Positions 700 through 59,050 of a stretch of 64,000 nt of DNA are shown here, piece by piece (within the stretch, counting starts at the first letter, position 1; every line of letters begins with the position of its first letter). The DNA lies in the NCBI GenBank assembly GCA_024408565.1, contig JAKSUW010000002.1:31993-95992 (forward strand), in the 5' to 3' direction. Source of the stretch: Bacilli bacterium (GTDB taxonomy: Bacteria > Bacillota_I > Bacilli_A > RFN20 > CAG-826). The notes below the pieces were generated by a model, which saw only the letters and a program-made list of their open reading frames with translations, made no database searches and had not been told where the DNA came from. Made by a program: the position numbers and the translations under genes.

Positions 700-1885
700 T
701 GGTGTAATTGTCGAAATATCCTTGGACTAAAATAATCGGCGTACCCTTATCGCCTGAACCACTAGTGAGATCACACAATGAACCTAATAAATCGGTGAGA
801 AGACGCGGAGTAGTGCCTTGTGTCGCCATCGTGCCTTTTAAATCTTTGGCTTTATTTTTAATTGATTGAGAAATAGCCGCTTTTAATTCTTCGCCTTTTA
901 AATCTTTGAAGTCATTGTCGGCAAGATATTTAAGTTTTAATTCGTTTGGCGTACCGATTAAACCATCAGTGTGGAAAGGCGAAACAACCGGATCGGCTAA
1001 TTCCCAAATTTTTCCTTGGGGATCTTTGAAAGCGCCGTCACCATAAACCATCACTTCAACGTGTTTACCGGTTTTTTTAAGGATGTCATTTTGAATTTTC
1101 TCCACTAATCCTTGTGCGTCACGGGGGAATAATTTAACAGTAGTTTCAGTAGCTTTATTAGTGCCTAAAAGACCATAATCTTTGTTATAGCCACTCCCGT
1201 TAATAGAACTAGTTAATATGTCATCAAGTCCTAAAACAATCTGTGCACCCGCAGCTTTTAATAAGCGCTTAGTTCTTGCACGAGTGTGAATATCGCAAGT
1301 TAAAATTTTCTTTGTGTAATTAAGAATTGCTTTTGGCTGATTAGCGAAAATTACTTCAGCGGTCGCGCCTTCACCTTCAATTAATTTAATGTAGTATTCG
1401 ATATAATCCACGCCAGTAAATTCGTGTTTACGGAAACCAAATAATTGCCGATACCGTTCAAGTGTTAAGACATCGGAATAAGGATTAATGCCTTTCGCAT
1501 CTAAGTCATCATAGGTTAATAAGGAATTACCAACTTCATCACTTGGATAAGAAAGCATTAGAATAATTTTCTTAGCACCACGCGCAATACCTTTTAAAAG
1601 TACGCTGAAGCGGTTCCGTGAATAAATCGGAAAGATAACACCGATGGTGTCGCCACCAAGTTTGTTTTTAATATCTTGACCAATAGCATCGATACTAGCG
1701 TAGTTACCTTGAGCCCGTGCCACGACAGATTCAGTAACCGCGATGACATCTTTATCACGTAAAGAGAAATGATCAGTTTGGCCCGCGGTCAAAACACTAT
1801 CGACAACAATTTGGGCTAGGTTATCGCCCTCTTTGATAATAGGGCAACGAATTCCTCTTGAGATTGTTCCAACGTTTCGAGCCAT
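692..1885 (-). CDS. CofE-like protein (F420-0:gamma-glutamyl ligase superfamily, long ~400-aa Firmicute type); function unknown
   Basis: 397 aa. GIRCPIIKEGDNLAQIV...DKDVIAVTESVVARAQG matches the CofE N-terminal signature (P-LIKEGDDLAELI...GDVLVV.S.VISKAEGR). AAGGAG RBS 8 nt upstream of the ATG at 1885. Confidence 0.4.
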   Translation of the reverse strand: MARNVGTISRGIRCPIIKEGDNLAQIVVDSVLTAGQTDHFSLRDKDVIAVTESVVARAQGNYASIDAIGQDIKNKLGGDTIGVIFPIYSRNRFSVLLKGIARGAKKIILMLSYPSDEVGNSLLTYDDLDAKGINPYSDVLTLERYRQLFGFRKHEFTGVDYIEYYIKLIEGEGATAEVIFANQPKAILNYTKKILTCDIHTRARTKRLLKAAGAQIVLGLDDILTSSINGSGYNKDYGLLGTNKATETTVKLFPRDAQGLVEKIQNDILKKTGKHVEVMVYGDGAFKDPQGKIWELADPVVSPFHTDGLIGTPNELKLKYLADNDFKDLKGEELKAAISQSIKNKAKDLKGTMATQGTTPRLLTDLLGSLCDLTSGSGDKGTPIILVQGYFDNYTND

Positions 1886-1966: not shown

Positions 1967-2044
1967 TTTATATTTATAAATAAATATAGATAAATATTCG
2001 CGTCATCCCAGTGTTAATTTGCATATTTACTATATGAGGAGGGG
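1967..2044 (+). repeat. Copy 1 of a ~75-nt intergenic repeat: AT-rich quasi-palindromic core TTTATATTTATAAATAAATATAGATAAATATT + ATTCGCGTC + spacer + TACTATAT + GAGGAGG
   Basis: Near-identical 38-nt core also at ~38083-38120 (1 mismatch). The whole element recurs inverted at ~58975-59050. Ends in an SD-like GGAGG 7 nt before an ATG (2049). Confidence 0.6.
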
Positions 2045-2112
2045 ATTTATGGTCCGCTTCTTAGGAGTCGTCGAATTGGGGATCGACACGTGTGGCAAGA
2101 AAAGGAGGCGCG

Positions 2113-2175
2113 ATGAGCGACACTCTCATCTTGTTAATATTGGTGTTGTTGTTAGCGATCGTTATTAAGGGCTAA
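2113..2175 (+). CDS. Hypothetical 20-aa hydrophobic micro-ORF (MSDTLILLILVLLLAIVIKG) in the ABC-operon leader
   Basis: ATG preceded by AAAGGAGG (4-nt spacer). Single predicted TM helix. Stop followed 7 nt later by hairpin GGATGGG-acaaa-CCCATCC. Overlaps an alternative 39-aa ORF (2049..2168, MVRFLGVVELGIDTCGKKRRRDERHSHLVNIGVVVSDRY) that is also RBS-preceded. Confidence 0.2.
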   Translation: MSDTLILLILVLLLAIVIKG

Positions 2176-2182
2176 CAAAAAA

Positions 2183-2201
2183 GGATGGGACAAACCCATC
2201 C
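2183..2201 (+). promoter_or_regulatory. GC-rich hairpin (GGATGGG/CCCATCC, loop ACAAA) right after the micro-ORF stop
   Basis: Perfect 7-bp inverted repeat read in the sequence. No U-run follows, so not a classic intrinsic terminator. Confidence 0.4.
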
Positions 2202-2257
2202 TAATCAACCCAAATATATTTTACCATACCTCTGTCGAAACTCAAGCCCTCATCTCC

Positions 2258-2275
2258 CGGCGCCTCCGGGCGCCG
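2258..2275 (+). promoter_or_regulatory. Strong GC hairpin (CGGCGCC-tccg-GGCGCCG) 12 nt upstream of the ABC start codon
   Basis: 7-bp all-GC stem, in a genome that is ~36% GC. No SD sequence between it and ATG 2287. Confidence 0.4.
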
Positions 2276-2286
2276 CTACAAATGTT

Positions 2287-4326
2287 ATGTATCGATTAGT
2301 TAATGTTAGCAAACAATATAGTAAGCAAAACGTCTTACACCATGTGACCCTTACTTTTCCTACGCACGGTTTAGTAGCGATTGTGGGTAAATCAGGGTCG
2401 GGGAAGTCGACTTTATTAAATTTACTTTCAGGAATCGACCATCCCACAACTGGTACAGTGATGTATGGTGGCGATGATTTAAACAAATTTAATGCGGCAG
2501 AACTAAAAACCTATCAAAATGAAAAACTTGGTATTTTATTTCAACACTTTAATCTCTTTAATGATTTAACAAGTATGCAAAATGTGGTGATACCAGCACT
2601 TATTAAAGGCGAGAAGAAAGCAAAAGCGTATGAATCCGCTGCTAAATTATTTAAGCAATATCATTTGGAGAATTTAAAAGAACAAAAATATGGAACATTA
2701 TCAGGTGGAGAAAAACAACGAGTGGCGTTATTACGCGCTTTGATTAATCATCCAGAAGTGATATTAGCTGATGAACCAACCGGTGCACTGGATAGTAAGA
2801 ATAGCATCTTAGTGATGGATGAACTTAAGAAACTAGCGAAAGATTATTTAGTCATTGTCGTTTCCCATAATGATGCATTAATTCGTCAATATGAGGATTA
2901 CCGTATTAATATCGTAAACGGGAACGTGAGTCCTCTATCAGCGGTACCGACACAAAAGAAAATTGTTAAACATCAACGGCATAGCAATCATCTTTTAATG
3001 CAAACATTTTTAAAATTGCATTTAAGTAAGCATCGTGTTCGTAACTTAATTAGTTTAGCTGCGATTAGTTTCTCCACACTAAGTTTTTTATTATCAGTGG
3101 GTTATATTAACGGCTCAAACGCTTCACGAGCAAAGTATGAGCAAGAATCACTCCTATATAACTCGGCCACCATCGCTAAGAAAACCATTATTGAATTGCC
3201 AAATTCGCCAATTAAAATTTCTAAATTATCTCGACCAAACGACGAGGAATTAACGTTTTTGACGGATGAACTAGCAAGTGTAGAAGTGGTGAATAATTAC
3301 CAAACCGTTTTTCCAAACGCACCAGTTTTTATCTTTGATCAACAGGAAATTAATGATATCGATTTTGCTCCTGTTTATGATTTCCATATTTATCAAGATT
3401 TATTAATCACTGGGAAAATGCCATCACCAAATTTTCAAGAAATTATTGTTAATACCGAATTTATCAATCGTTTCGGATACCAAAAAGAAAATATTATTGG
3501 TCGTAATTTGCGGCTATCAAGTATTGTGACGATTAATAGCAAAGTTGGTAGTGATTATATAAAAGATATCATTTCTTATTCGGATGAATTAACGATTACC
3601 GGTGTAGTGGAAGAGTTTGCCTATCTTAATATGCCGCGCGTTTATTATTCATATTTGGGTTTACAGCATAAATTGAAAAACACTTTACTTGTTAATTACT
3701 CGCATGCGCTTGGCTATAACGCGACAATAGATGAATTAGTGAGCAACGCGACAAGTGATGATCCTAACAGTGGCTATGCCTATTACTTATTTATAAAAGA
3801 TATCAAAGAAATGAATCGCTTATACCAATTAAAAGTAGAGCACGATCGATTAAACGACTTTGATATTGCCTCAACTACTTATTTAATCGCGGGGTCTTAT
3901 GAAGATATGACTAATATCATCGCCACCTCACTAGTGGTTTTTCTAATTTTGACGCTGTTAGCGACACTTACAATTATCATTATTGCTTCTTATTCTAACT
4001 ACACGCAAAACAAGCAAGAAAGCGCGATTTTATCGGTTTTAGGAGCCAAGCGAAATGATATATTTAGCATTTTTAATGCAGAAAATTTATTAGTTGCAAT
4101 TGTCGGTTTACTCCTTGCGTTTATTTTGGCGTTCCCAATGCAATTATTAGCCAACCAAATTATCGCGAACGCTTTCCATCTAACAAATTTAATTGTGGTG
4201 CCGTTTATTAGCTATTTGTCACCACTAATCATATTGTCGGTTTTGCTACTTACTTCGTTAGCGGCTTTTATTCCTTTTATGTTTTATGAGAAAAATTATA
4301 TTTTGGAGGAATTAAAAGACGAATGA
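2287..4326 (+). CDS. MacB-type fused ABC transporter: N-terminal ATP-binding domain + FtsX-like permease with a ~270-aa extracytoplasmic domain
   Basis: Walker A GKSGSGKST, signature [15 protein letters not shown], Walker B ILADEPT. One TM after the ATPase, a large hydrophilic domain, then three C-terminal TM helices (MacB/FtsX topology). I place the start at M of MYRLVNVSKQY (in frame with track ORF 2185); the upstream 34 codons are Pro-rich translation of the GC hairpins. Confidence 0.8.
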   Translation: MYRLVNVSKQYSKQNVLHHVTLTFPTHGLVAIVGKSGSGKSTLLNLLSGIDHPTTGTVMYGGDDLNKFNAAELKTYQNEKLGILFQHFNLFNDLTSMQNVVIPALIKGEKKAKAYESAAKLFKQYHLENLKEQKYGTLSGGEKQRVALLRALINHPEVILADEPTGALDSKNSILVMDELKKLAKDYLVIVVSHNDALIRQYEDYRINIVNGNVSPLSAVPTQKKIVKHQRHSNHLLMQTFLKLHLSKHRVRNLISLAAISFSTLSFLLSVGYINGSNASRAKYEQESLLYNSATIAKKTIIELPNSPIKISKLSRPNDEELTFLTDELASVEVVNNYQTVFPNAPVFIFDQQEINDIDFAPVYDFHIYQDLLITGKMPSPNFQEIIVNTEFINRFGYQKENIIGRNLRLSSIVTINSKVGSDYIKDIISYSDELTITGVVEEFAYLNMPRVYYSYLGLQHKLKNTLLVNYSHALGYNATIDELVSNATSDDPNSGYAYYLFIKDIKEMNRLYQLKVEHDRLNDFDIASTTYLIAGSYEDMTNIIATSLVVFLILTLLATLTIIIIASYSNYTQNKQESAILSVLGAKRNDIFSIFNAENLLVAIVGLLLAFILAFPMQLLANQIIANAFHLTNLIVVPFISYLSPLIILSVLLLTSLAAFIPFMFYEKNYILEELKDE

Positions 4327-7070
4327 TATCACTTAATAAGATTTCCAAACGTTATAAAAATCCGGTGGTAAATAATTTTTCTTATACCTTTAAAAACCGT
4401 GGATTAATCGTGGTTTTAGGGAGCAGCGGTTCAGGAAAGAGCACACTTTTAAACCTTATCAGTGGAGTTGATTTAGATTACCAAGGAGAGATCCAACTAG
4501 ATGGCACTAATTTACGACTTTTAAATCTAACCGAACAAAGTAGTTTTCGTCTTAACCAAACCGGTTATGTTTTCCAAGATTTTAAATTACTAAATTTACT
4601 CAGTGTGAAGGATAATGTTTTGTTTAATTTAGACGCAATTGCTTCCGTAAGTAAAAGCATGAAAGAAGAGATGCTTGACCGGGCACTTAATTATGTTGGT
4701 TTAATGCCCAAAAAGAATGTAGCGGTGAAGTCATTAAGTGGGGGAGAAAAACAACGGGTGGCAATCGCTCGTGCAATTGTGACTGAACCGAAATATTTAT
4801 TGTGCGATGAACCAACCGGAAATCTCGATGATAAGACGGCTATTCAGATTTTTGAATTATTAAAAAAATATAGCGAGACTCATCTAGTCATAGTAGTGTC
4901 ACATGACCAAGAAAAATCATATAGTTATGCGGACGAAATCATTCATTTACAAGATGGGGAAATTCAAACAGTTGAAAAACTACATCCGATTGATGAAAGA
5001 AAGTTACCGAACGCCAAAATTGAAAAGAAAAAATGGCCGAGATTATCACTTAATTTATTGTTGCGAGCTGGCGTTAGAAAAATGAAAGAGAAAAAATGGC
5101 GTTCAGCCTTTGTTAATCTCTTGTCTTCTAGTTCGCTACTCGCATTAGGGGTCGGAGTGATGATTGCCACTACTCTACGCAACCAAATTATTGAATCTTT
5201 CAATAACGTTGTGGAGGAAAATGAGATTCTTGTTAGTAAACGGAACGCTGACCCTAATCCTTATTCTTATTACATCTCTACACCGGAAGATGAAGTGCGT
5301 ACTTTATATGAAGAATACGGTGATTATTGTTATGACATGGGTGTTATGTATCTTAATAATTTCAATACATTTTTTACAACTTATGACCGTGTGAATCTTC
5401 GTTATATGGAAGATTTTAAAGTGCCACTTCCCTCTTTTCATAGCGCGCTATTTGTGAATTATGTTTGGCCGGAAGAAAAAATAATTAATCGTTTTTATCC
5501 AGATTTTTCCGGTAAGTTAAGTATCGATGAAGTCATTATTGGTATTACGTATAGTCAAATGGTTACGCTTTGTCAATCACTCCAAATTCAAAGGTCTTTC
5601 GAAGCCCTAGGAGCATATCTTGAAGCGAAGGAAATTATGTTGTCACTAGAAGTTGCTAATGCCGATTGGGAATATGAAGACAAACAAGTTATGCGCTTAA
5701 AGGCAGTTTATAACTCAAGTGTTCCTGAGGTATACCATACAAACCATTATTTTAATCAGAACCTATTTGAAGAGAAGATGCGATTCCCAATTACTTTAGA
5801 TATCAATGCGACTGATTTAGCACCATTTACTTTAAAGAAAGTATTTACCCTCCACACGATTGAAGCACCAACTAATTTAATTGAAGAAGTCACTTATGAA
5901 GCACGTTTTAACGATATTTTATTAGAACGGAGTGAAAACTTTTTAAAAGATACATGTGTAACAACCGATAGCTGTTTACGAAATGTTTTACTAGTATTCA
6001 CCTTAGACAAAAATACAGTTAATGTTTCTGACATCATTTACTTTAAGCGGGTGGCGAACGCAATCAAAGCTTATTACCCATCAACTTATGGTGGTTATCA
6101 AATGCATAGCAGTGGGTTACTAGCGGGTTTTGTCAGTAACATTGGTTTTTCTTTTGATGAAGAGAAAATTGTCGCGGTCGGTGATTATTTCGCTAAACAA
6201 ACAGAGGGAGAAATGGAAGATTTTCCAGGAGTCGCTATCGGCAGTATGACTCGTTTTAATAATCATGGCGTATTGTTTTCGAGTGACTTATCAAATATTG
6301 AACAAGGTGAAGCGCCAACTAGCTATGACGAAATTGTTTTGTCTACGGGATTAATCGATTATTTAGGCATAAAGACTAATCCGATTGGTGAAAAACTTTA
6401 TTATTGTATGTATTCTTCAACTCTTGATGCTGTCATCATTCATGAATTTGTGGTGACGGGTATCGTCAATAATCCACAAAATTATCTTTACCATTTTCCC
6501 TTATTCACTATTTCCTTTTTCCGTGATCGCTTAGGTGTTTCTTCTTTTAATTTATTACCAACTTCGTTAGTTTTAACTTTTGATGAAGGCGTAAACATGG
6601 ATTTGTTGGTTAGCGATTTATCCGCCGCTTTTAAAGATTATCAATTTACCTCGCCACTTGTTGAAATTGGCAAAACGGTTGATGAAGTAATGAGCTATGT
6701 CAAAACGATTGCCTTTATTTTTATTGGTGTAACACTAGTCGTTACAATTATGCTTTTATCACTCATTGCTTATTTAAATACATTAGAAAATAAAAAAGAT
6801 GTCGGTTTACTAAAACATCTTGGTCATCCACGGGAAACCATTATGCAATATATGCTCTCTCATACTTTAGTGATGTCGTTAATCGCTACTGGATTAGCAG
6901 TACTAGAAATGCTCGTCTTACAAATCTTTATGTCGGGTGCGATGGCTAGTCTTTTCGGTGGTGGGACCATTTTAAACATTTCACCATTACCGTTCCTTAT
7001 TATTGTGGTGGTCGGCCTATCATTGCCGTTATTAATTACCGGAATTATTACGCGTTTGTCGCTTCATTAA
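4323..7070 (+). CDS. Second MacB-type fused ABC ATPase/FtsX-like permease (915 aa) with a ~500-aa extracytoplasmic domain
   Basis: Walker [33 protein letters not shown] ~residue 260, long hydrophilic domain, three C-terminal TM helices. ATGA overlap with the previous gene, so probably a heterodimeric partner. Confidence 0.8.
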
Positions 7071-13896: not shown

Positions 13897-15914
13897 AAAT
13901 CGCGTTGTTAGGTAATCAAAACTCAGGCAAAACTTCCCTTTTTAACGCGTTAACTGGCTCTAACCAAAAGATTGGTAACTGGCCTGGTGTCACCATTGAC
14001 CGGATTGAAGGAAAAATTAAAAAACATGATGCGACCATCACTGATTTACCAGGAGTTTATTCATTATCACCATACACAAGTGAAGAAGCTATTTCGCGTC
14101 ACTTTGTTTTGGAAGGAAAGCCTGACCTTATTATTAATATAGTAGATGTTACGAGTCTAGAACGGAGTCTTTATCTTACCACTCAATTACTCGAACTTAA
14201 TACGGATGTTATCGTAGTGGTGAATATGATCGACCTCCTTGAAAAGAAAGGGATTAAGATTAATCTTAAAGGTCTATCGGAAGCGATGGGTGTCACAATG
14301 GTACCGGTTTCGGCCAAAACAGGTGATGGTATCGACCGTTTATTAAACATAATCTTCCGTCATAAATATAAAAAGAATAAACACCAAAAGATTTATCCAT
14401 ATGATGTTGAGACATTTATTCAAAACGTCATGATGGCACAGAAGTGCGATCGTTTTGCAGCGGTAAAAGTTTTAGAAGAAGACTTGGAATTTAGAGTCCT
14501 TATGAACGAAGAAACAAAAAAAGCGCATACGGATATTGAAAATAAATATCGGATGGATGGTGAACAATTAGTCGCATCACTACGTTATGAATATATTGAA
14601 AAATTAAAGAAAGACTTTGTACAAATCAAACGCCGGAAGATAACCAAGAGTGACCGTGCGGACAGCATTTTCCTACATAAAATTTGGGCCATTCCAATTT
14701 TTATTGTCATGATGATGGGCGTATATTTTTTGTCCATCGCGGTCGTCGGTGGACTTACTTCTAACTTAATTTCTGCAGCTTTTAACGGTGCAAAAACACT
14801 CGAACTAGACTTTATCTTTACTAAGGTCATCTTTGATCATCCGGTGGCTGGTTTAGGGCCATTGCTTGGCAATTGGTTAAAGAGTGTCGGCGCATCACCT
14901 TGGTCCGTTTCGTTGGTGGTTAATGGTATTGTGGGTGGCGTAAGTGCGGTGGTATGTTTTGTGCCGCAGCTAATGATGCTCTTTTTGTGTTTAGGCATTC
15001 TTGAGACAACCGGTTATATGTCGCGGATTGCTTTCTTCTTAGACCGGATTTTCCATAAGTTTGGTTTATCAGGAAAATCACTTATTCCCTTCATCGTGGG
15101 CGCGGGTTGTAGTGTACCGGGCGTTATGAGCACACGGATTATTGAAGATCCAAACGAAAAGAAAGCCACAATTGCTTTAGTGCCGTTTGTGCCTTGTAAC
15201 GCTAAGTTACCAATCATTTCATTAATTTGCTCTGTTTTCTTTGGCGGTTACGCTTTCTTATTTGCCTTACTCTTCTACTTCATGGCCATTATTTTAATTT
15301 TAGGTAGTGCGATTGTTTTAAAGAAGATTTTAAAACGGAAGGAACATTCGACCTTTATTAGTGAATTGCCTAGTTATAAGGCTCCTGATTTCCTTTATAT
15401 TGGTCGCGATGTGGGAGATAAAACAGCTGCTTTCTTTAGACGAGCGGGAACAGTGGTTGTCTTTTTCTCAGTAATTGTGTGCATCCTTACTTCTTTCACT
15501 TGGGATTTTAAATATGTTGATAATGTTTCAATCACAGTCAACCAATCAATGCTAGCGGGTATTGGTAATGCCTTTTCGTGGTTCTTTTATCCAATGCTTG
15601 GTGGACACGGCGGAGAATGGATGTGGGTAGCAAGTGTCTCAAGTATTCAAGGCTTAGTGGCCAAAGAACAAGTCATCTCATCTTTGAGGGTTATCGAAGC
15701 AGCGGGTGGTCCATCAATCCAACAACTATTCACTCCACTTGGTGCGTTTGCTTACGCTACCTTTAACCTATTTTCAATCCCGTGTGTTGGTACTATCAGT
15801 ACAATCCATGGCGAATTAAGATCGTGGAAGAAGACTGGACTTATTATGCTATGCGAAATTGTCGTTGCTTGGCTCTTAGCTAGTTTTATTGGTATTTGGG
15901 GAGCGTTATTATGA
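13893..15914 (+). CDS. feoB: Ferrous iron transporter B
   Basis: N-terminal G domain MKIALLGNQNSGKTSLFNALTG, DLPG, NMID, then a polytopic gate domain. Start placed at the internal MKIAL of the track ORF. Confidence 0.9.
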   Translation: MKIALLGNQNSGKTSLFNALTGSNQKIGNWPGVTIDRIEGKIKKHDATITDLPGVYSLSPYTSEEAISRHFVLEGKPDLIINIVDVTSLERSLYLTTQLLELNTDVIVVVNMIDLLEKKGIKINLKGLSEAMGVTMVPVSAKTGDGIDRLLNIIFRHKYKKNKHQKIYPYDVETFIQNVMMAQKCDRFAAVKVLEEDLEFRVLMNEETKKAHTDIENKYRMDGEQLVASLRYEYIEKLKKDFVQIKRRKITKSDRADSIFLHKIWAIPIFIVMMMGVYFLSIAVVGGLTSNLISAAFNGAKTLELDFIFTKVIFDHPVAGLGPLLGNWLKSVGASPWSVSLVVNGIVGGVSAVVCFVPQLMMLFLCLGILETTGYMSRIAFFLDRIFHKFGLSGKSLIPFIVGAGCSVPGVMSTRIIEDPNEKKATIALVPFVPCNAKLPIISLICSVFFGGYAFLFALLFYFMAIILILGSAIVLKKILKRKEHSTFISELPSYKAPDFLYIGRDVGDKTAAFFRRAGTVVVFFSVIVCILTSFTWDFKYVDNVSITVNQSMLAGIGNAFSWFFYPMLGGHGGEWMWVASVSSIQGLVAKEQVISSLRVIEAAGGPSIQQLFTPLGAFAYATFNLFSIPCVGTISTIHGELRSWKKTGLIMLCEIVVAWLLASFIGIWGALL

Positions 15915-38082: not shown

Positions 38083-38155
38083 TTTATATTTATGAATAAA
38101 TATAGATAAATATTCGCGTCTTTTTGGCCTCCTTTACGTATATATAAATAGGAGG
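38083..38155 (+). repeat. Copy 2 of the ~75-nt intergenic repeat
   Basis: TTTATATTTATGAATAAATATAGATAAATATTCGCGTC + TTTTTGGCCTCCTTTACGTATATATAAATAGGAGG. The 3' half aligns with the reverse complement of copy 3. CCTCCT/AGGAGG can pair as a hairpin. Confidence 0.6.
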
Positions 38156-38196: not shown

Positions 38197-38225
38197 TTGC
38201 GAATTAATAACCATTGTTATATAAT
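38197..38225 (+). promoter_or_regulatory. Putative sigma-A promoter of rpsF-ssb-rpsR (TTGCGA-17-TATAAT)
   Basis: Hexamers read in the sequence ~85 nt upstream of the rpsF ATG. Confidence 0.5.
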
Positions 38226-38310: not shown

Positions 38311-38601
38311 ATGAAAAAGTACGAGATTATGTACATCTTAAAGGCAGATCTTGATGACGCTGCCCGCAAGAAAGAAGTTAGCAAACTTCACGAAATTCTA
38401 ACGAAAAACGGAGCGAAAATCACGAAGGTTGACGAGTGGGGAGTCAAAGACTTTGCCTACGAAATCAAAGACCAAAAGAAAGGTTACTACGTGGTGTTAA
38501 AAGTCTTAACTGACGCTGCCGTTTTAAATGAATTTTCTCGGTTAGTTCGCATTGATGAACATGTGATTCGTTATCTAATTACTGTTGCACACGGTAATTA
38601 A
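38311..38601 (+). CDS. rpsF: 30S ribosomal protein S6
   Basis: MKKYEIMYILKADLDD...GVKDFAYEI, 96 aa. RBS AAAGGAGGG. Confidence 0.9.
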   Translation: MKKYEIMYILKADLDDAARKKEVSKLHEILTKNGAKITKVDEWGVKDFAYEIKDQKKGYYVVLKVLTDAAVLNEFSRLVRIDEHVIRYLITVAHGN

Positions 38602-38621
38602 AAGCAATGGAGGAAAATTCA

Positions 38622-39047
38622 ATGATTAATCGTGTAGTTTTAGTGGGTCGCTTAACGCGTGACCCGGAACTCAGAAAAACTAATAGCGACGTGGCCGTCG
38701 CTTCGTTTACGCTTGCGGTCGATGACCGGAGCAAAAACGCGGAAGGGAAACAAAATACCAATTTTATTCCCGTCACCGTTTGGCGTGAACAAGCCACGAA
38801 CGTTTGTAAGTTTGTCCGGAAAGGTTCACTCGTCGGAGTGGATGGACGGATTGTCCAACGGAGTTTTGAAAGAAAAGACGGCACTAAAGCCTCAGCCTTA
38901 GAAGTCGTCGCGGATTCGGTGAAATTCTTAGAGCCAAAAGGCGCGAAGAATAACGCGGAAGCCCCGAAAGATGACATCAACCAAGTCGAACCCGAAGAGA
39001 AAGAAATGAAGGGTGTCGACATTGTCGATGATGATTTACCTTTCTAA
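38622..39047 (+). CDS. ssb: Single-stranded DNA-binding protein
   Basis: MINRVVLVGRLTRDPELR OB fold. Acidic C-terminal tail DDDLPF. Confidence 0.9.
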   Translation: MINRVVLVGRLTRDPELRKTNSDVAVASFTLAVDDRSKNAEGKQNTNFIPVTVWREQATNVCKFVRKGSLVGVDGRIVQRSFERKDGTKASALEVVADSVKFLEPKGAKNNAEAPKDDINQVEPEEKEMKGVDIVDDDLPF

Positions 39048-39070
39048 ATTAAATTAAGGAGAATGTACAT

Positions 39071-39298
39071 ATGGGATTTAAGAAAATTAGACCACATAAG
39101 AAATCATGCTACTTTAAGAAGAACCACATCACCTTTATCGATTATAAAGACGTGGATCTCTTACAAAGATTTATTATGCCAAACGGGAAGATTATGCCTA
39201 GCTACATGTCAGGCACTTCCGCGAAGTATCAACGCCAACTCGCTAAGGCGATTAAGAATGCGCGTTATATGGGTTTATTACCTTACTTAGCGGACTAA
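39071..39298 (+). CDS. rpsR: 30S ribosomal protein S18
   Basis: [26 protein letters not shown]...[25 protein letters not shown], 75 aa. Confidence 0.9.
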
Positions 39299-50287: not shown

Positions 50288-51139
50288 ATGAAAATTGCTC
50301 TTTCGGCGGAAACAACCATTGACTTAACTCCCGCCTTACTTCAAGAATACGATATCCATATCGTCCCCTTCTCAGTTATTTTAGGTGATCAAGCTAAACT
50401 CGACGGAGAGATGAGTAACCAAGACATCTTTGATTATGTGGCTAAAAATAATAAGCTCCCCAAGACGAGTGCGGTTAATCAATTTCAATACGAAGAACAT
50501 TTTAAAAAACTCTTAGAGAATTATGATGCGGTGATTCATTTATCTTTATCAAGTGAGATATCAAGCGCGTATCGTAACGCTTTACTAGCGGCGGAAGAGT
50601 TTAATGGTAAAGTTCATATCATTGATTCTCGTTCTCTTTCGACGGGAATCGCTCTCTTAGCCTTTTACGCGCACGACCTAATTACGCAGGGCTTAGACGA
50701 TAACGTAGTAGTGGAGAAAGTGAAAGCCCGGATCCCATCAATTCAAATTAGTTTTGTCATCAAACAATTAGATTATCTTTATAAAGGTGGTCGCTGTTCA
50801 AAACTCGCGATGTTTGGTGCGAATATCTTCCATATTTGCCCCCAGATTATTATGAGTGATGGCAAGATGGCACCAGGTAAAAAATACCGGGGGCTTTATC
50901 AAAAAGTTGTGGCGGATTATATTGACGACACCTTAGCCCAATTTAATCATCCAGATTTAGAACGCGCCTCGATTACTTACTCTAGTCTCGATGATGAAAA
51001 GGAGATTGTCGAGATGGTGAAAGCGAAGTTAACTGCGCGTGGCTTTAAGCGTATTTATCAAACCTACGCGGGTGGTACAATTACCTGCCATTGTGGGCCC
51101 AACACCATTGGAATTGCCTATTTTAACGATCATGAATAA
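50288..51139 (+). CDS. degV: DegV-family fatty-acid-binding protein
   Basis: MKIALSAETTIDLTPALLQEYDIHIVPFSVIL, 283 aa. Confidence 0.85.
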   Translation: MKIALSAETTIDLTPALLQEYDIHIVPFSVILGDQAKLDGEMSNQDIFDYVAKNNKLPKTSAVNQFQYEEHFKKLLENYDAVIHLSLSSEISSAYRNALLAAEEFNGKVHIIDSRSLSTGIALLAFYAHDLITQGLDDNVVVEKVKARIPSIQISFVIKQLDYLYKGGRCSKLAMFGANIFHICPQIIMSDGKMAPGKKYRGLYQKVVADYIDDTLAQFNHPDLERASITYSSLDDEKEIVEMVKAKLTARGFKRIYQTYAGGTITCHCGPNTIGIAYFNDHE

Positions 51140-53294
51140 TTTACCGGCGGTTAATCTTTGCTTATACCAAGAACGTGTCAAACGTGGTCAATCTTTAAAG
51201 GTGGCAGCGCACGGGATTGGGATTAACAAGATTCGCTTAAATTTAATCGAAAAAGGTTATTTAGCAGTTAGTAAAAAACTTGAACCGAAGTTTATTAAAT
51301 ACTACGGTTTAGCACCAGATTTCTTTACTAAGCACTCTAACTATGTTGAACCGCTTAAAGATAAACAAACAAAACCAACTAAGCCTAGTAAAATGAATAA
51401 AGTCTTAACCCATAAGGCTACTAAATGGGTCTTAGGTGGTTTAATGGTGGTAACCGCGGTAACACTTGGTGTTGGTATTTATTTAAACTATGAACCTTAT
51501 ATTCATCCGCGAGCACCGTGGACTGAAAACTTTACGACTTTCCATGAGAAATTCATGAACGATGAAGACACCTATGAAGATAGTGGCGATCTCGTTTTGT
51601 TCGACCATCGGTATGTAAATGTATATGAAAAAGAGAAATATAGTGAGGGACATACTTTAGAGGTTACGGCCGCTCTTTATGGGAACGATAATAATTCATC
51701 CAATACTAATTTTAGGTTTGATTACTATATCCCAGATGAAGGAATTAATGATTCCTTGGCTAACGCGGTGTTCCAAGTCCTTTGTTACAATAACCACATC
51801 ATCGCGTTTACGGATTATGTTACAGATGAAATTAGTGTTTCTGCCGCGACATGTTTTATCGAAAACGATGAATATAATCTCCGCCCATTCTTTTATACCG
51901 ATGTGAATGGCGAATTAAAAAAAGCGCTCCCCGGGTCTTTAATTCATCAAGAAGTCAGCGATTTTATTAAAAGTAACCTTCCCGGTATGTTTGCTGTTTA
52001 TAGCAGAAATGTATTAGCAAAAAAAGGCTGGGCGTACACAAATATCAATGATCTACTACGCGACATCCAAAAGATTTCAAAGGCGTATGTTAAAAATGTC
52101 GGCTTGGCTTTTGATATGACCTTATATAGCGCGCTTATTTTAGCGTTATCGGCTTGTATGCTTGGTTTATCTTTAATGACGGTTCGACGTAGTAAGAAGG
52201 CGACAGTCGCAATCAATAAGAGTAATGATAAAATTTCTGCCGCAGCTATCGCGTTACCATCGCGTAGTCTCCCTAACGATACACGGGTGCCATTAGTGGT
52301 ACCAGAGTTTGCTTTGCGTATTATTGGGATTGCGATTTTAGCATTATTCGCGGTGAGTTTAAACTTAGCAATTTTTTGGCGACTAAACGTTGATTTCATT
52401 AGTGTGCCAGAGCGAGTTGATCGTCTACAAAACCTATCGAGTAATATTCTTATTGCGGCAATTACTCTCTTCTTCTTTTTAAAACTTGATATCTATCATA
52501 AAAAGAGCCAAAAAGAATTAGCGAGTGATGTCTTTATTCTCTTTATGGGTGGCTTAGCGTTCTATATAGTTGAAGTTGTTCTTTATACGACTGCGGTGCG
52601 CGAATTTTCTTATTCCGCGAATATCTTTAATTCGCTTTTTGTGATTATTACTACCTTCTTACCTGGCAATATCCTTTGGAACTTGATGTTCTACTCGTTG
52701 ATTTTCTATTTCTTATTTTCAACACCAGAAAAGTATAAGAATCAACCCGCGAAAATATTACGCTTCCGGTTATTGAGCCTTCTTCCAACGCTCTTCTTAC
52801 TGTTTGCACTAATTTACAAAATCGTTATTGAGCCGGTTGCACCAGCACCGTATTTTATTTCCGTTATTTTCTTTACTAAAGGCGTACTCATGACTTTATT
52901 CGCGATTGTTTATTTATATGGTATATATTTCTTACAACTTCATTATCGGCATAAATATGGTGATAGTAACGCTAGTTTAATATTTGAATCTCGTCGCTAC
53001 GCTTTTGCTAAAAATATTATGGCTTCATCAATCATCGTGGTTTTATTCTTAATTGATTTACTCTTCCGGTTTATAATGCCCGATAACGTTTTAATGTTAG
53101 GTAATAACTGGGCAATCATTTTATTAGTACCGTTTATTATGTTCTATCACCCACATTTAGGTAAACGTAGTAACAAATTAGACACTTTATTCTTGGCTTT
53201 ATACGCTCTCTTTTTCGCAGGTGCTTATCTTGGAGCGATTAACCAAATTCTCTCGCTTTTCGATTTTACTGAATTAGTGGAGATTTTGCATTAG
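51132..53294 (+). CDS. Membrane protein, paralog A: N-terminal XRE-type HTH, 1 TM, ~250-aa extracytoplasmic domain, C-terminal ~9-TM domain; unknown family
   Basis: HTH_XRE-like LYQERVKRGQSLKVAAHGIGINKIRLNLIEKGYL. TM at ~125-147, hydrophilic domain, then many TM helices with motifs LPGNILWNL and PHLGKRS. Start at the internal MNNLP of the track ORF (8-nt overlap with degV). Confidence 0.6.
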   Translation: MNNLPAVNLCLYQERVKRGQSLKVAAHGIGINKIRLNLIEKGYLAVSKKLEPKFIKYYGLAPDFFTKHSNYVEPLKDKQTKPTKPSKMNKVLTHKATKWVLGGLMVVTAVTLGVGIYLNYEPYIHPRAPWTENFTTFHEKFMNDEDTYEDSGDLVLFDHRYVNVYEKEKYSEGHTLEVTAALYGNDNNSSNTNFRFDYYIPDEGINDSLANAVFQVLCYNNHIIAFTDYVTDEISVSAATCFIENDEYNLRPFFYTDVNGELKKALPGSLIHQEVSDFIKSNLPGMFAVYSRNVLAKKGWAYTNINDLLRDIQKISKAYVKNVGLAFDMTLYSALILALSACMLGLSLMTVRRSKKATVAINKSNDKISAAAIALPSRSLPNDTRVPLVVPEFALRIIGIAILALFAVSLNLAIFWRLNVDFISVPERVDRLQNLSSNILIAAITLFFFLKLDIYHKKSQKELASDVFILFMGGLAFYIVEVVLYTTAVREFSYSANIFNSLFVIITTFLPGNILWNLMFYSLIFYFLFSTPEKYKNQPAKILRFRLLSLLPTLFLLFALIYKIVIEPVAPAPYFISVIFFTKGVLMTLFAIVYLYGIYFLQLHYRHKYGDSNASLIFESRRYAFAKNIMASSIIVVLFLIDLLFRFIMPDNVLMLGNNWAIILLVPFIMFYHPHLGKRSNKLDTLFLALYALFFAGAYLGAINQILSLFDFTELVEILH

Positions 53295-53316
53295 AATATT
53301 TACGCAGTAAATAACT

Positions 53317-55554
53317 ATGGCTAACACGAAAAAGTCTTACGCAATCAATCGGTTATTATACCGGGCACGACTCGACCGCCACGAAACTTTAAAACGGGCG
53401 GCTCATTCAATGCACATACACCGCCTCCGTTTAAAGTTAATCGAAAACGGTTATTTAGATGTGCCAAAAAAATTACAACAACGCTTTATTGATCACTATC
53501 ATCTTCCGAAAAACTTCTTTACGGTAAACTCGACTTATTCTGAACCAATCAAAGAAGATCTTGAGAAGAAAAAAGATATTATTCGGATTCGTAAACTCGC
53601 TAACTCACGGCGGCTTCGAGTAGTTTGCGGAATTGCCATTGGCGCTAGTGTCGTTACTTTAGCCCTCGGTATTTTTTATGCGAACCGAAACGCTCGTGCT
53701 CCTCGCGAAGCCTGGAGCAAGGATTTTATTACTTTCCGTGAAGCGATAATGAAAGAGGGTACTCAAGGCTATAGTGAATCGTTTAATGATAATTATTATT
53801 ACATTCCTAAGGAAGGGTACACGTTTACATTAGATGTACCAGACTATCGTACGATACAACTAGATGGCGAGATTCAAACTATTCTTTACGAGAAAGAAGT
53901 TAATGCCGCTGATACAAATATTTATTGTAAGTTTACTACGCCAGAATCATCGAACGAAATTGAACACGACCCATCTTTTACGATTACTATGGAAGTGACT
54001 TGCTATAACAAAAAGAAAATTGTGTTCATCTCCTACATTGAAGAGAATATGACTGGTGCGATTACTGTTCCTTCCGCTAACTGCATAATTGAGGATAGAG
54101 GTAAATTTAATTTAAGACCATTTCGCTACAACAGAGCCACTCGTTCAGATAATATTGCCCAAGTTGGCGACAAACATTATGAAAAATTAAGAATATGTAT
54201 GGAGCAACTCCTACCGCAATTTATTGAGAAATATAATAATGATTATTTACCTAGTTTCCATTATTTACAGTATAAAGATTTTTATGATGTGATTGATGAT
54301 GTTGGCGTGATTTCGCGTAATTACATTTTGAATTTACGATTAGGCTTTCATATGACTTTATCGAGTGCTTTGGTTTTTGCTTTTGTTAATGCTCTTATGT
54401 TCCTCTCCTTTGCAGTTCCAGCGAACAAAAAGGTAGAGATTTCCGAAAACGTCAATATGGCTTCAGGAAATAGTAAAGAGGGTATTAATTTCTCGGCCTC
54501 TAGTCTTGCCTTGCCTGGGCGTAGCCACGTGAACGACATTAAAGTTCCGCTTATTTTCCCAGAATTCCTTTTGCGGTTTTTAGGTTTATCCATTATCTTA
54601 CTATTCGCGGTGGCCCTTAACCTATCCGTTTATTGGCAGCTTAACATCAGTATGATTGTTCCCAACGCTACCATCACCGCAATCAGTAATTTATCAAGCA
54701 ATATGCTTATCGCGGGAACCACGCTTCTCTTCTTCTTGCGTCTCGATGTATTCTCCCGAAAGAATCGGGTCGATTTATTGACTAATATTTTCTGGTACTT
54801 TATCTATGGTCTTGGTTTCTACGTAATCGAGGTTGTACTCTACTCTACCTTTATGCGCGAATTTGCTAATACACAAAATATGTTGACTAAACTCGGCTAT
54901 TTTATTGCCACATACCTACCGGGTAATATCTTCTGGAACTTAACGATTTACTTCGTCATCTTCTATTTCTTGTTTATTACGCCAGCGCGTTTCCAAAATA
55001 AACCTCATTCATCCTTAGTTAAGTTTAGATGTTGTAGTTTAATCCCAACCGCGGTGTTGATATTCTCTTTTATCTTTACCTATGTTATTTCACCAATGAC
55101 AAATGCCCCGTATATTTTGACTTGCGCCTTCTCGACTGGTAGTCTTGCTATTTCTTTATTCGCCTTACTTTACATGTATACAACTTATTTCTTTCAAGTT
55201 TATTGCATTCGTCGTTATGGGAAAGATGTCGCCACGATTTACTTTTATTCAAAACGCTTTTCGTTTACCAAGAATGTGTATGCATCAATTATTATTACTT
55301 TGATTGTCATCGCAGACTTATGTTTCCACTTCTTAATGCCTAATAATGTTCTAGGTTTAGGTAACAGCTGGATGATTATGGTTTTAGTGCCACTTATCTT
55401 ATTCTATTTCCCCCATATTGGCTCACGGAGCGCTCGTTGGGATAATGTTTGTGAACAACTTTATAGTCTTTTCTACTTAGGCGCGTATCTAGGTGCGGCC
55501 ATCCAAGTTTTAACCTTATTTGATATGAGCGCGTTACTCGAACTCATCCATTAG
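53317..55554 (+). CDS. Membrane protein, paralog B (tandem duplicate of 51132..53294), same architecture
   Basis: LYRARLDRHETLKRAAHSMHIHRLRLKLIENGYL (HTH_XRE-like), ...YLPGNIFWNL..., ...PHIGSRS. Alignable with paralog A over its whole length. 745 aa. Confidence 0.6.
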   Translation: MANTKKSYAINRLLYRARLDRHETLKRAAHSMHIHRLRLKLIENGYLDVPKKLQQRFIDHYHLPKNFFTVNSTYSEPIKEDLEKKKDIIRIRKLANSRRLRVVCGIAIGASVVTLALGIFYANRNARAPREAWSKDFITFREAIMKEGTQGYSESFNDNYYYIPKEGYTFTLDVPDYRTIQLDGEIQTILYEKEVNAADTNIYCKFTTPESSNEIEHDPSFTITMEVTCYNKKKIVFISYIEENMTGAITVPSANCIIEDRGKFNLRPFRYNRATRSDNIAQVGDKHYEKLRICMEQLLPQFIEKYNNDYLPSFHYLQYKDFYDVIDDVGVISRNYILNLRLGFHMTLSSALVFAFVNALMFLSFAVPANKKVEISENVNMASGNSKEGINFSASSLALPGRSHVNDIKVPLIFPEFLLRFLGLSIILLFAVALNLSVYWQLNISMIVPNATITAISNLSSNMLIAGTTLLFFLRLDVFSRKNRVDLLTNIFWYFIYGLGFYVIEVVLYSTFMREFANTQNMLTKLGYFIATYLPGNIFWNLTIYFVIFYFLFITPARFQNKPHSSLVKFRCCSLIPTAVLIFSFIFTYVISPMTNAPYILTCAFSTGSLAISLFALLYMYTTYFFQVYCIRRYGKDVATIYFYSKRFSFTKNVYASIIITLIVIADLCFHFLMPNNVLGLGNSWMIMVLVPLILFYFPHIGSRSARWDNVCEQLYSLFYLGAYLGAAIQVLTLFDMSALLELIH

Positions 55555-57805: not shown

Positions 57806-58655
57806 ACGGATTCTTGGTAAGTATGTGCCTTATGATACCGTGATTCATCGCCTTGATCCGCGGTTAAAGATTATGGCGATGATTATGCTCATGGTTTCCA
57901 TCTTTTTAAGCTATGGTAGTTGGACCATGATGTTTACCTTATCCGGGATTAACTTAGTGGTGATTGTGGCTTTAATGTTTATTAGTAAGGTCAGGATTCG
58001 CGACCTTATTTGGCAACTGAAGAGCTTATATATTTTAATTATTCTTCTCATGATTATTAATATCTTTTTACCACCCGCTCATAGTGTTCATATAATTGGT
58101 AAAATCGGTAACCTTAATATATATGCAGAATCCTTCTTACAAACGGGCAAAATTATTATTCGTTTAATGGAGATGCTAGCGGTAGCGATGATATTAACTT
58201 CATCCACTACGCCGCAACAATTGACCCAAGGCTTTTCTTGGTTTACGCGGCCGTTAAAGAAAATTAAATTCCCGAGTGAAGAGATTGCGATGACAATTTC
58301 TTTAGCTTTGAGATTTATCCCAACTTTATTAGAAGAAACAGAACGACTTTATAAAGCTCAATCAAGTCGTGGGGTGGACTTTAAACATGGTAGCCTCATG
58401 ATGAAAATTAAAGGTATCACCTCATTAATTGTTCCTTTATTTGTCGCTTCGTTTGCGATGAGCGATGATTTAGCGTTCGCGCTGGAGGCGCGTGGCTATA
58501 ATCCACGTGGCACTCGCACTAATTACCGGGAATTACATTGGTCAACTAAGGACACAATTTGTTTAATCTTAGTCACTCTATTTATGACTGGTTTCATTAC
58601 TTTAACGGCAATGAAGTTCGATTTTATTAAATTAATTTTCCCATTAGTTTGGTAA
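57798..58655 (+). CDS. ecfT: ECF transporter transmembrane component EcfT
   Basis: RLDPRLKI... EcfT coupling motifs (ALEARG). 285 aa. Confidence 0.85.
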   Translation: MDKRILGKYVPYDTVIHRLDPRLKIMAMIMLMVSIFLSYGSWTMMFTLSGINLVVIVALMFISKVRIRDLIWQLKSLYILIILLMIINIFLPPAHSVHIIGKIGNLNIYAESFLQTGKIIIRLMEMLAVAMILTSSTTPQQLTQGFSWFTRPLKKIKFPSEEIAMTISLALRFIPTLLEETERLYKAQSSRGVDFKHGSLMMKIKGITSLIVPLFVASFAMSDDLAFALEARGYNPRGTRTNYRELHWSTKDTICLILVTLFMTGFITLTAMKFDFIKLIFPLVW

Positions 58656-58967
58656 CTTCTTAAGACCGTTATAGTCTAGACGCGCTTCAATTCTATCAAT
58701 CCGTGTTTCAAGGCCATCAATCCGCGCATTAACTTGTTTAAACCCGGCGTTCATTTCGCTTCTTAAGCTATTTAGGCCATTACTAAGCCCATCAATCTTT
58801 TCGACTAACTGAGCCATGGTTATTCTCTTTGTCTTCTTTTTCATCACTGTCTTGCCGGGTGTTCCTTTAACTTTATAATACACCTTAAGAAATACATCTA
58901 GTGGACATTTTTTTAAAATCTCCATTACTTTTAATGCATTCATGAATTCACTCTGATATTTATCCAT
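58644..58967 (-). CDS. Hypothetical protein with C-terminal coiled coil (107 aa)
   Basis: Translation uses the GGAGG of repeat copy 3 as its SD (GGAGG-aatttt-ATG). C-terminal heptad-like region ...LSNGLNSLRSEMNAGFKQVNARIDGLETRIDRIEARL. Confidence 0.4.
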   Translation of the reverse strand: MDKYQSEFMNALKVMEILKKCPLDVFLKVYYKVKGTPGKTVMKKKTKRITMAQLVEKIDGLSNGLNSLRSEMNAGFKQVNARIDGLETRIDRIEARLDYNGLKKLPN

Positions 58968-58974
58968 AAAATTC

Positions 58975-59050
58975 CTCCTACCTTTATATACGTAGGAAGA
59001 GCATCTAAAGACGCGAATTTATTAATATATTTATAAATAAATATAGAAAA
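58975..59050 (-). repeat. Copy 3 of the ~75-nt intergenic repeat (inverted orientation)
   Basis: The reverse complement reads TTTTCTATATTTATTTATAAATATATTAATAAATTCGCGTCTTTAGATGCTCTTCCTACGTATATAAAGGTAGGAGG, collinear with copy 2. The forward strand also contains the exact 22-mer TATATTTATAAATAAATATAGA of copy 1. Confidence 0.6.

Follow-up and report, generated by a model that had tools for sequence, protein, structure and literature searches.

A recurrent intergenic cassette of uncultured gut Bacilli as a probable shared promoter of a natural-competence-type regulon

Competence boxes are known in detail for few cultured groups of bacteria, namely the streptococci (ComX), Bacillus (ComK), Staphylococcus and Listeria (sigma-H), and the Pasteurellaceae and Vibrio (CRP-S). 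The box of the streptococcal ComR/Rgg regulators (ECom-box) is a palindrome of 20 bp, in which two 9-nt arms enclose a centre of 2 nt, and it is followed by a T-tract and a -10 element. The streptococcal SigX promoter reads TTTTT-(0-9)-TACGAATA-(17-25)-ATG and is located upstream of dprA, ssbB, comEA, radC and other genes (PMC6001120; PMC9300618). Genes comEA-comEC, dprA, radC and ssb belong to the core of the streptococcal competence regulon (PMC6001120), and bacteriocin and exporter accessory genes are likewise part of such regulons (PMC9300618). In Listeria, sigma-H drives the comG, comE and coiA operons from promoters whose boxes are conserved and whose spacers are polymorphic (PMC4754846), and the K-box recognized by ComK is composed of two AAAA-N5-TTTT boxes that are 8, 18 or 31 bp apart (PMC3536758). 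Here we describe an intergenic cassette of about 75 nt that a sequence-only scan yields as the apparent equivalent of these boxes in uncultured Bacilli of the horse gut, with an upstream part that is unusually long and rigid and with one block that varies by species. It is present in three copies in a 64,000-nt stretch from a Bacilli bacterium (assembly GCA_024408565.1, contig JAKSUW010000002.1, positions 31,993 to 95,992 of the forward strand), to which we refer as the window. We consider it probable, at roughly 60%, that this repeat represents the promoter shared by the genes of a regulon that is specific to this lineage and of the natural-competence type.

The cassette consists of three blocks (A, B and C) that precede a Shine-Dalgarno (SD) sequence. 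Block A is a perfect AT palindrome, a 9+9 inverted repeat with a free 2-nt centre (TATATTTAT-NN-ATAAATATA). In the 17 copies that carry A, its right arm is always separated by 7 nt (N7; AT-rich, variable in sequence) from block B, ATTCGCGTC, and a pyrimidine-rich stretch of 18 or 19 nt extends from B to the TATnTA of block C, which is a T-tract followed by nCGTATnTA. At the downstream end, a TA|G is found 12 nt past the first T of this hexamer in 13/17 copies, and TA|GGAGG is usually followed by an ATG at a distance of 5-8 nt. Among the 13 are the copies upstream of radC (locus L004) and dprA (locus L009), whose real SD is displaced downstream by 10-35 nt. A, B, CGTAT-TA and TAGGAGG have a high information content, which drops almost to zero in N7 and over the initial 10 nt of the B-C spacer. 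Conservation is block-wise, with A, B and C nearly invariant and N7 and spacer unrelated among non-paralogous copies. No sigma-70-type promoter was called inside any of the three window copies. Folded as a single strand into a DNA hairpin or cruciform, palindrome A reaches -2.5 to -4.8 kcal/mol, which is no better than shuffled sequences, and a structural role for A is thus unsupported.

An 18-base composite pattern, ATAAATATA-N7-ATTCGCGTC, was used to search 596 Gb of genomes. Eleven sites were found in JAKSUV01, the metagenome-assembled genome (MAG) 'Bacilli bacterium Horse_feces342', and the remaining genomes gave just seven singletons, compared with about 17 matches that we calculate for chance in 596 Gb at uniform base composition. 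JAKSUV01, hereafter the sister MAG, is a sister species and not the same genome, with ~90% identity to the window over 5.5 kb of coding DNA; its loci were read as 8-kb stretches around the pattern matches and are labelled L001 and so on. The pattern has no match in viral contigs. All ten matches in metagenome contigs are devoid of the left palindrome arm and are therefore regarded as chance matches. A hidden Markov model of the cassette core added two degenerate copies in the loci of the sister MAG and none in the window, and one more copy of this MAG has B, C and SD without the palindrome. This brings the total to 18 copies (17 with block A): three in the window, 14 in JAKSUV01 and one orthologue of copy 2 on L028, a Logan contig from a third genome or another strain that is 93% identical and was reached through the exact RpsF protein. 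A natural A-less cassette is situated at 5250-5305 (-) of L008, where B, spacer, C and SD are intact and the place of A is taken by unrelated AT-rich sequence right after the upstream gene.

Within the window the palindrome pattern (up to three mismatches) matches at exactly three sites as compared with 0.28 expected, a count reached in 0/100 shuffles, and the exact 9-mer ATTCGCGTC is confined to the three copies. Taken together with the statistics of the composite pattern, this argues that the similarity does not reflect low-complexity AT sequence, which an initial annotation of the window had named as the outcome that would speak against the family. At the gathering threshold of Rfam, no family and hence no curated structured RNA was matched in the whole window. 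Reading and aligning the sites bore out the initial annotation in that the three copies are where it had placed them, that they form a dispersed promoter, short-leader and SD cassette in front of non-homologous genes, and that GGAGG is positioned to act as SD in copies 1 and 3, with an ATG 6 nt on. Its 'quasi-palindromic' core is real; it is, however, a perfect 9+9 repeat, and the mismatch ascribed to copy 2 falls within the free centre. We conclude that the element is real, non-random and functional-looking, and that its exact form is confined to one species group of uncultured gut Bacilli.

The genes preceded by a cassette include comEA-comEC, dprA, radC, ssb, two ABC (ATP-binding cassette) systems of the peptide-exporter type, and genes for small coiled-coil proteins. 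ComEA of the sister MAG was assigned through TIGR01259 and ComEC through TIGR00361 (E 3e-44), with ComEC_N-term above cutoff; the DprA protein P0001 is 98% identical to DprA of this MAG. Several family matches carry Mycoplasma-based names (ComEC_MAG0480, ComEA_MAG0490, the Mbov_0121 ABC family), which suggests that the lineage is related to the Mollicutes. In the window, copy 2 is located 190 nt upstream of the rpsF-ssb-rpsR operon. It had been called orphaned, and indeed no ATG follows its GGAGG; yet it stands upstream of this operon and is conserved with a promoter-like footprint. Between the window and L028, blocks A and B of copy 2 are identical at 39/40 positions and the segment from C to SD at 17/18, as opposed to 10/17 in the spacer, whose length is unchanged. 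Further downstream the next 41 nt are 83% identical, and the sigma-A promoter plus leader agree at 114/114 positions. This is the pattern to be expected of two recognition blocks whose spacer would matter by its length alone. The intergenic region of copy 1 is 98-99% identical between window and sister MAG, compared with 89-92% for the flanking coding sequences; locus L003 of the MAG is orthologous to copy 1 and also has the two ABC/FtsX fusion genes.

The gene set also allows for a different label. The cassette might be an operator at which a repressor or activator controls a regulon other than competence as such, be it a sigma-H-like stationary-phase or stress regulon or one for bacteriocin production or fratricide, with DNA-uptake genes as only some of its members. 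This is compatible with the many members that have no part in uptake, such as the small coiled-coil proteins, both ABC exporters and a thioredoxin-like lipoprotein whose gene has pcrA after it, and sigma-H regulons of other Firmicutes do mix competence with other genes (PMC4754846). However, the members that can be named, comEA-comEC, dprA, radC and ssb, are the classical competence core as known from streptococci (PMC6001120), and bacteriocin and exporter accessory genes occur in streptococcal competence regulons as well (PMC9300618). We therefore judge this alternative improbable; in substance it differs from a competence-type regulon mostly in the label.

Under the preferred reading, that of a competence-type promoter, block C with its T-tract and nCGTATnTA would be the -10 element, and block B, 18-19 nt upstream of C, would belong to the -35 region, with a divergent alternative sigma factor resembling ComX or sigma-H recognizing the two. 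Palindrome A, centred ~57 nt upstream of the predicted start, may bind a dimeric regulator or act as an UP-like element. The first G of GGAGG would be the start of transcription, which would result in a very short leader with the SD at its 5' end, as in streptococcal late competence genes. The regulon would switch on DNA uptake (comEA-comEC), processing and recombination of DNA (dprA, radC, ssb), peptide-export ABC systems and the small coiled-coil proteins. In the window, copy 1 would drive a leader and the two ABC/FtsX genes, and copy 3 the gene for a 107-aa protein. At rpsF-ssb-rpsR, copy 2 would place an inducible promoter ahead of the housekeeping one, such that SSB goes up when the regulon is on.

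Several observations weigh against this reading. The exact streptococcal 8-mer TACGAATA (TTNCGAATAA) is present in 0/17 copies (one mismatch in 4/17, two in 7/17, three in 6/17); its GAAT core reads GTAT throughout, with CGAAT in none of the 17 copies and CGTAT in 11/17. Block C is weakest in front of two core genes, comEA (TACATATTTT) and dprA (CTCTATTTA). Most copies have a palindrome centre of 2 nt, which is widened to 3 nt in L004, L007a and L011 and reduced to 1 nt in L009; such variation, over 1-3 nt in one species and reaching 6-8 nt in a sibling species, is awkward for a rigid dimer. About half of all copies sit on one paralogous gene family and hence are non-independent. No gene for a sigma-H- or ComX-like factor was seen in this species, as far as the window and the 8-kb loci of the sister MAG extend. 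The start site, the sigma factor, the palindrome-binding protein and the boost of ssb by copy 2 are what we infer rather than observe. Finally, the SD region has its complement in the pyrimidine tract ahead of C, and the RNA folds into a hairpin with z-scores of -3 to -5 in about 11 of the 17 copies.

If the latter hairpin forms in RNA, transcription must start upstream of C. In this case the start would be at or just past B, A plus B would constitute the promoter proper, and a 45-nt leader would form a hairpin that hides the SD and carries CGUAUAUA in its loop; we regard this arrangement as unlikely. Its function, about which we are equally doubtful, could be that of a translational gate (thermometer-like or opened by a factor) or of a 5' stabiliser. 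A variant that we favour no more strongly keeps the start at GGAGG and lets the hairpin silence just those transcripts that read through from upstream genes, silencing of read-through being all that is left to a hairpin with the start site inside it. IS10 uses silencing of this kind against outside transcription. The hairpin has a minimum free energy of -9 to -18 kcal/mol (z -3 to -4.9) in the ~11 copies. It is also in favour of a role in RNA that in L004 and L009, where the SD is displaced, other pyrimidine stretches (CCTCTT, TTTTTCTCT) pair with it, and that copy 2 on L028 folds at -15.1 kcal/mol as compared with -13.9 kcal/mol in the window, despite seven changes in the spacer and seven past GGAGG. 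The complementarity between CCTCC and GGAGG pointed out in the initial annotation is thus genuine; the register of the stem, by contrast, is not conserved. It shifts by 0 to 10 between copies, the arms being merely T/C-rich and A/G-rich, and because of these differences in register no covariance model was built. Moreover, the hairpin is missing in copy 1, L005 and L015 (comEA), its z-scores are non-significant in the sibling species, and Rfam contains no match for it. That TATnTA keeps a constant distance of 18-19 nt to B and of 12 nt to the G is hardly what would be expected of a loop, and no canonical -10 or -35 element is rightly placed upstream of B.

Similarity to the streptococcal cin-box is evident in block C. 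In the best copies the T-tract leads directly into an 8-mer at the -10 position, TACGTATA here as compared with TACGAATA in streptococci, and the arrangement T-tract-TACGTATA-19-ATG is one base off the SigX box. From the box to the ATG it is ~19-21 nt in standard copies, so the leader is very short. In most copies, 0-2 nt separate nCGTAT from the end of the T or pyrimidine run (exceptions are L004, L015 with an A-run, and copy 1), and the kinds of genes downstream (comEA, dprA, radC, ssb, bacteriocin-type exporters) correspond as well. The late competence operons that have a cin-box upstream are those of comEA, dprA, radC, ssbB, comG, comF, coiA and cinA-recA, of which the loci read here covered comEA, dprA and radC, along with ssb. 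By contrast, no conserved upstream element is described for the cin-box, whereas the 20-nt palindrome and the 9-mer in the -35 region are the best conserved parts here.

With the sigma-H promoters of Listeria, Staphylococcus and Lactobacillus (RMAGGRWWW-N11-12-RRMGAAW) the cassette has in common a two-block architecture in front of comE/comG-type operons, and boxes that are conserved while the spacer is polymorphic between strains. The sigma-H factor of these bacteria is small and fast-evolving, and a relative has a sigma-H-like gene at the sigH locus. By our count, 21-22 nt separate the CGTC core of B from the CG of C, as AGGA is separated from GAAT. It is only this offset that agrees: in the direction of the genes the sigma-H consensus finds neither AGGA at -35 nor GAAT at -10. 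A sigma-H promoter on the reverse strand (GCGAAT as -10, AGGA as -35) fits the small-gene paralogues and copy 2 alone and points away from the genes, and we rejected it. Nor is there support for reading CGTC of block B as the -10 of an extracytoplasmic function (ECF)-type promoter, with no AAC-type -35 found at 16-17 nt.

Like the K-box of Bacillus subtilis, block A is an AT-rich symmetric site upstream of a late competence core promoter, where an activator binds in the case of the K-box. The polarity is opposite, since a T-tract precedes an A-tract here, and K-boxes with at most one mismatch are not consistently placed in any way among the 17 copies. Block A shares with the ComR/Rgg box the length of 20 bp, the 9-nt arms, the 2-nt centre, and a T-tract and -10 that come after it. 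ComR/Rgg boxes, however, adjoin the -10 in place of the -35 and control few early genes (comS, comX, bacteriocins), whereas the palindrome described here stops 35 nt short of the -10 and is associated with late genes; the two have no sequence similarity.

The initial annotation had favoured a mobile element, of the kind of a miniature inverted-repeat transposable element (MITE) or a repetitive extragenic palindromic (REP) sequence, and had held that the pattern fits a single regulon less well. A repeat of ~75 nt in front of unrelated genes does resemble such elements or a 'mobile promoter', spread by transposition or recombination with its outward promoter being incidental. A and B are identical over many loci, a uniformity above that usual for regulator sites; one copy is devoid of block A; and small-gene cassettes are found at different sites, between ecfT and truA in the window and after rplM-rpsI in L011. 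The latter is also compatible with whole genes duplicating and moving together with their promoter. Unlike MITEs, the cassette is conserved block-wise and has neither terminal inverted repeats nor target-site duplications around its copies, from which we conclude that it is not a MITE. Its ends (T-run and palindrome on one side, GGAGG on the other) do not form an inverted repeat, nothing is common to the flanks, and beyond a few T's before the palindrome the copies are no longer similar. Because N7 and the B-C spacer are unrelated in non-paralogous copies, recent duplication of a single 75-mer does not account for them. Furthermore, copies 1 and 2 occupy orthologous positions in genomes that have diverged by 7-10%, every copy points toward a gene at a fixed distance, with strict orientation toward a start codon, and no copy was met in viral contigs or outside the lineage. 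A mobile origin is therefore highly improbable in our view, and the presence of the same cassette upstream of comEA-comEC, dprA and radC in the sister MAG contradicts the reservation about a single regulon.

Comparison with other relatives separates the blocks. In the sibling MAGs JAKSUY01 and JAKSUZ01, which were reached through homologues of the 107-aa protein, the architecture upstream of homologous small genes is kept with different B boxes. Retained are the half-sites ATATTTAT/ATAAATAT, T-tract-CGTAT(T) and TAGGAGG at the 12-nt distance; ATTCGCGTC is replaced by CTCCGTGAGTC (JAKSUY01, two copies), by AAGTGCGGG (JAKSUZ01) or by nothing obvious. In a fourth MAG, JAKSVA01, TACATTTAT-TT-ATAAATGTA is located 73 nt upstream of dprA (protein 61% identical), the distance in the sister MAG being 78 nt. 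This is palindrome A in its 9-2-9 form, with a symmetric change in both arms, and it is the sole such site in 14 kb. Block A is thus kept across species and tied to dprA, and block B is species-specific. No A and B were found upstream of dprA in L032 and L033 (62-66% identity). At 9877-9894 of L033, 106 nt upstream of dprA, there is a different 18-nt AT palindrome (TTAATAATTAATTATTAA), which may be an equivalent operator with changed specificity.

In the relative represented by L032 (DprA 66% identical) a divergent gene of the sigma-70 family (14629-15195, 199 aa) is found downstream of cysS and a SpoU-type methylase gene (trmH). This position is where sigH lies in Bacillus and Staphylococcus. 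The match of its product to SigH is weak (E 2.5e-5), and that to the ECF superfamily has an E value of 4e-9. A word-based search for orthologues returned two matches, none of them from the species studied here, and so small a number of homologues points to fast evolution. It is tempting, if tentative, to speculate that palindrome A and the species-specific GC box B represent a hitherto undescribed mode of competence control in Mollicutes-related gut Bacilli, in which a dimeric master regulator would bind the palindrome and act together with a fast-evolving sigma-H-like factor. As part of the same speculation, and possible rather than probable, the -35 specificity residing in block B would be re-set in each species, and the regulon would comprise an expanded family of small coiled-coil proteins.

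If the cassette does control competence, these uncultured gut bacteria with small genomes would be naturally transformable, and it would provide a handle to predict or induce competence. Confirmation would also yield a list of regulon members, including the new small coiled-coil family and small hydrophobic leader peptides, as well as a compact inducible promoter and a route to its cognate regulator. For annotation, the lesson is that intergenic 'repeat families' can be regulon promoters and not mobile elements. The positions of the cassette blocks and associated genes are compiled in Table 1.

Table 1. Cassette copies in the window, with their associated genes, and genes preceded by a cassette in the sister MAG (assigned roles are predictions).
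Feature	Position or locus	Strand	Remarks
Copy 1, block A, TATATTTAT-AA-ATAAATATA	1969..1988	+	Perfect palindrome
Copy 1, block B, ATTCGCGTC	1996..2004	+	Proposed -35-region element; 7 nt past palindrome
Copy 1, block C, TATTTA	2024..2029	+	-10-like; 19 nt past B; weakest C of the three; no CGTAT
Copy 1, GAGGAGG and ATG 2049	2036..2051	+	SD/predicted start region; GGAGG 2038-2042; short ORF (open reading frame) putative
Copy 1, leader up to ABC genes	2050..2286	+	237 nt; 98% identical to sister MAG
Two fused ABC-ATPase/FtsX-permease genes	2287..7070	+	MacB/bacteriocin-exporter type; real start ATG 2287
Copy 2, block A, TATATTTAT-GA-ATAAATATA	38085..38104	+	Palindrome
Copy 2, block B, ATTCGCGTC	38112..38120	+	
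Copy 2, B-C spacer	38121..38138	+	7/17 compared positions differ in L028; length equal
Copy 2, block C (ACGTATATA) and TA|GGAGG	38136..38155	+	TATATA 38139-38144; GGAGG 38151-38155; no ATG/ORF after it
rpsF promoter, TTGCGA-17-TATAAT	38197..38225	+	Ordinary sigma-70 type; downstream of copy 2
rpsF-ssb-rpsR operon	38311..39298	+	First genes past copy 2; ssb 38607-39047
Copy 3, block A, TATATTTAT-TT-ATAAATATA (minus strand)	59026..59045	-	Palindrome
Copy 3, block B, ATTCGCGTC	59010..59018	-	
Copy 3, block C (TACGTATATA) and GTA|GGAGG	58974..58993	-	1 mismatch to TACGAATA; TATATA 58990-58985; GGAGG 58978-58974
Gene for 107-aa small coiled-coil protein	58644..58967	-	ATG 58967; downstream of copy 3
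comEA (SLBB+HHH_3)-comEC-holA	L015		Cassette upstream
dprA, directly after rnhB	L009		TIGR00732 above cutoff; cassette upstream
Gene for 59-aa membrane protein, and radC	L004		Cassette upstream
C39-peptidase ABC exporter gene	L005		Cassette upstream
Thioredoxin-like lipoprotein gene, then pcrA/uvrD	L007		Cassette upstream

The palindromic nature of block A makes copy 3 look alike on both strands, and its orientation is set by B, C and the gene. This gene, for the 107-aa protein, stands between ecfT and truA, with a 12-nt overlap (58644-58655) into the 3' end of ecfT, and the palindrome of copy 3 ends 5 nt before a TTG and 21 nt before an ATG, both candidate starts of truA. An exact look-up of the 107-aa protein gave no record. 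It belongs to a narrow family with the C-terminus GFKQVNxRIDGLExRIDRIExRLDYNGLKKLP that is found in only a few 'Bacilli bacterium' sibling MAGs and for which Pfam, NCBIfam and PHROGs returned merely sub-threshold coiled-coil matches (DUF16, XhlA, HSBP1). The sister MAG has eight such genes on L001, L007, L008 and L011, several of them in tandem and with terminator-like hairpins, and each paralogue examined in these arrays has a cassette of its own. Tandem arrays extend over 560-1980 of L001 and 3990-5300 of L008, and every unit combines a cassette with a gene for 91-114 aa and with a pair of conserved hairpins (CCTCACCTTGA...GTGAGG; CTCCCCT...AGGGGAG).

Short ORFs for putative small peptides accompany some of the cassettes. 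On L005, a 20-aa ORF at 1135-1197 (-) (MPNPICTIECYRLLLFWREK) with a cassette upstream has a stop codon that overlaps (ATGA) the start of the C39-peptidase ABC exporter gene; it may encode a coupled leader or a pheromone-like peptide. The leader that follows copy 1 contains a 20-aa hydrophobic ORF (2114-2176, MSDTLILLILVLLLAIVIKG) with a strong SD, in which the sole difference from the sister MAG is synonymous. Two hairpins follow, one at 2182-2202, which is an intrinsic terminator when read on the minus strand, and a GC-rich one at 2259-2279; in both, differences from the sister MAG are confined to the loops. The arrangement may be that of a leader peptide or resemble a type-I toxin. In another relative (DprA 75% identical; L031, 1-300), dprA has a leader of similar build to the one after copy 1, on a contig that ends short of the expected A/B position. 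There, a C-block-like TATATAT is followed by GGAGG and a short ORF, and these by a hydrophobic ORF of 15 aa (MILLLLLLLIVSIKS) and a terminator hairpin in reverse orientation.

Elsewhere in the window, at 51039-55554, two adjacent paralogous genes encode proteins of ~750 aa, each with an N-terminal helix-turn-helix-like segment and a large membrane part (repeat families D2 and D15).

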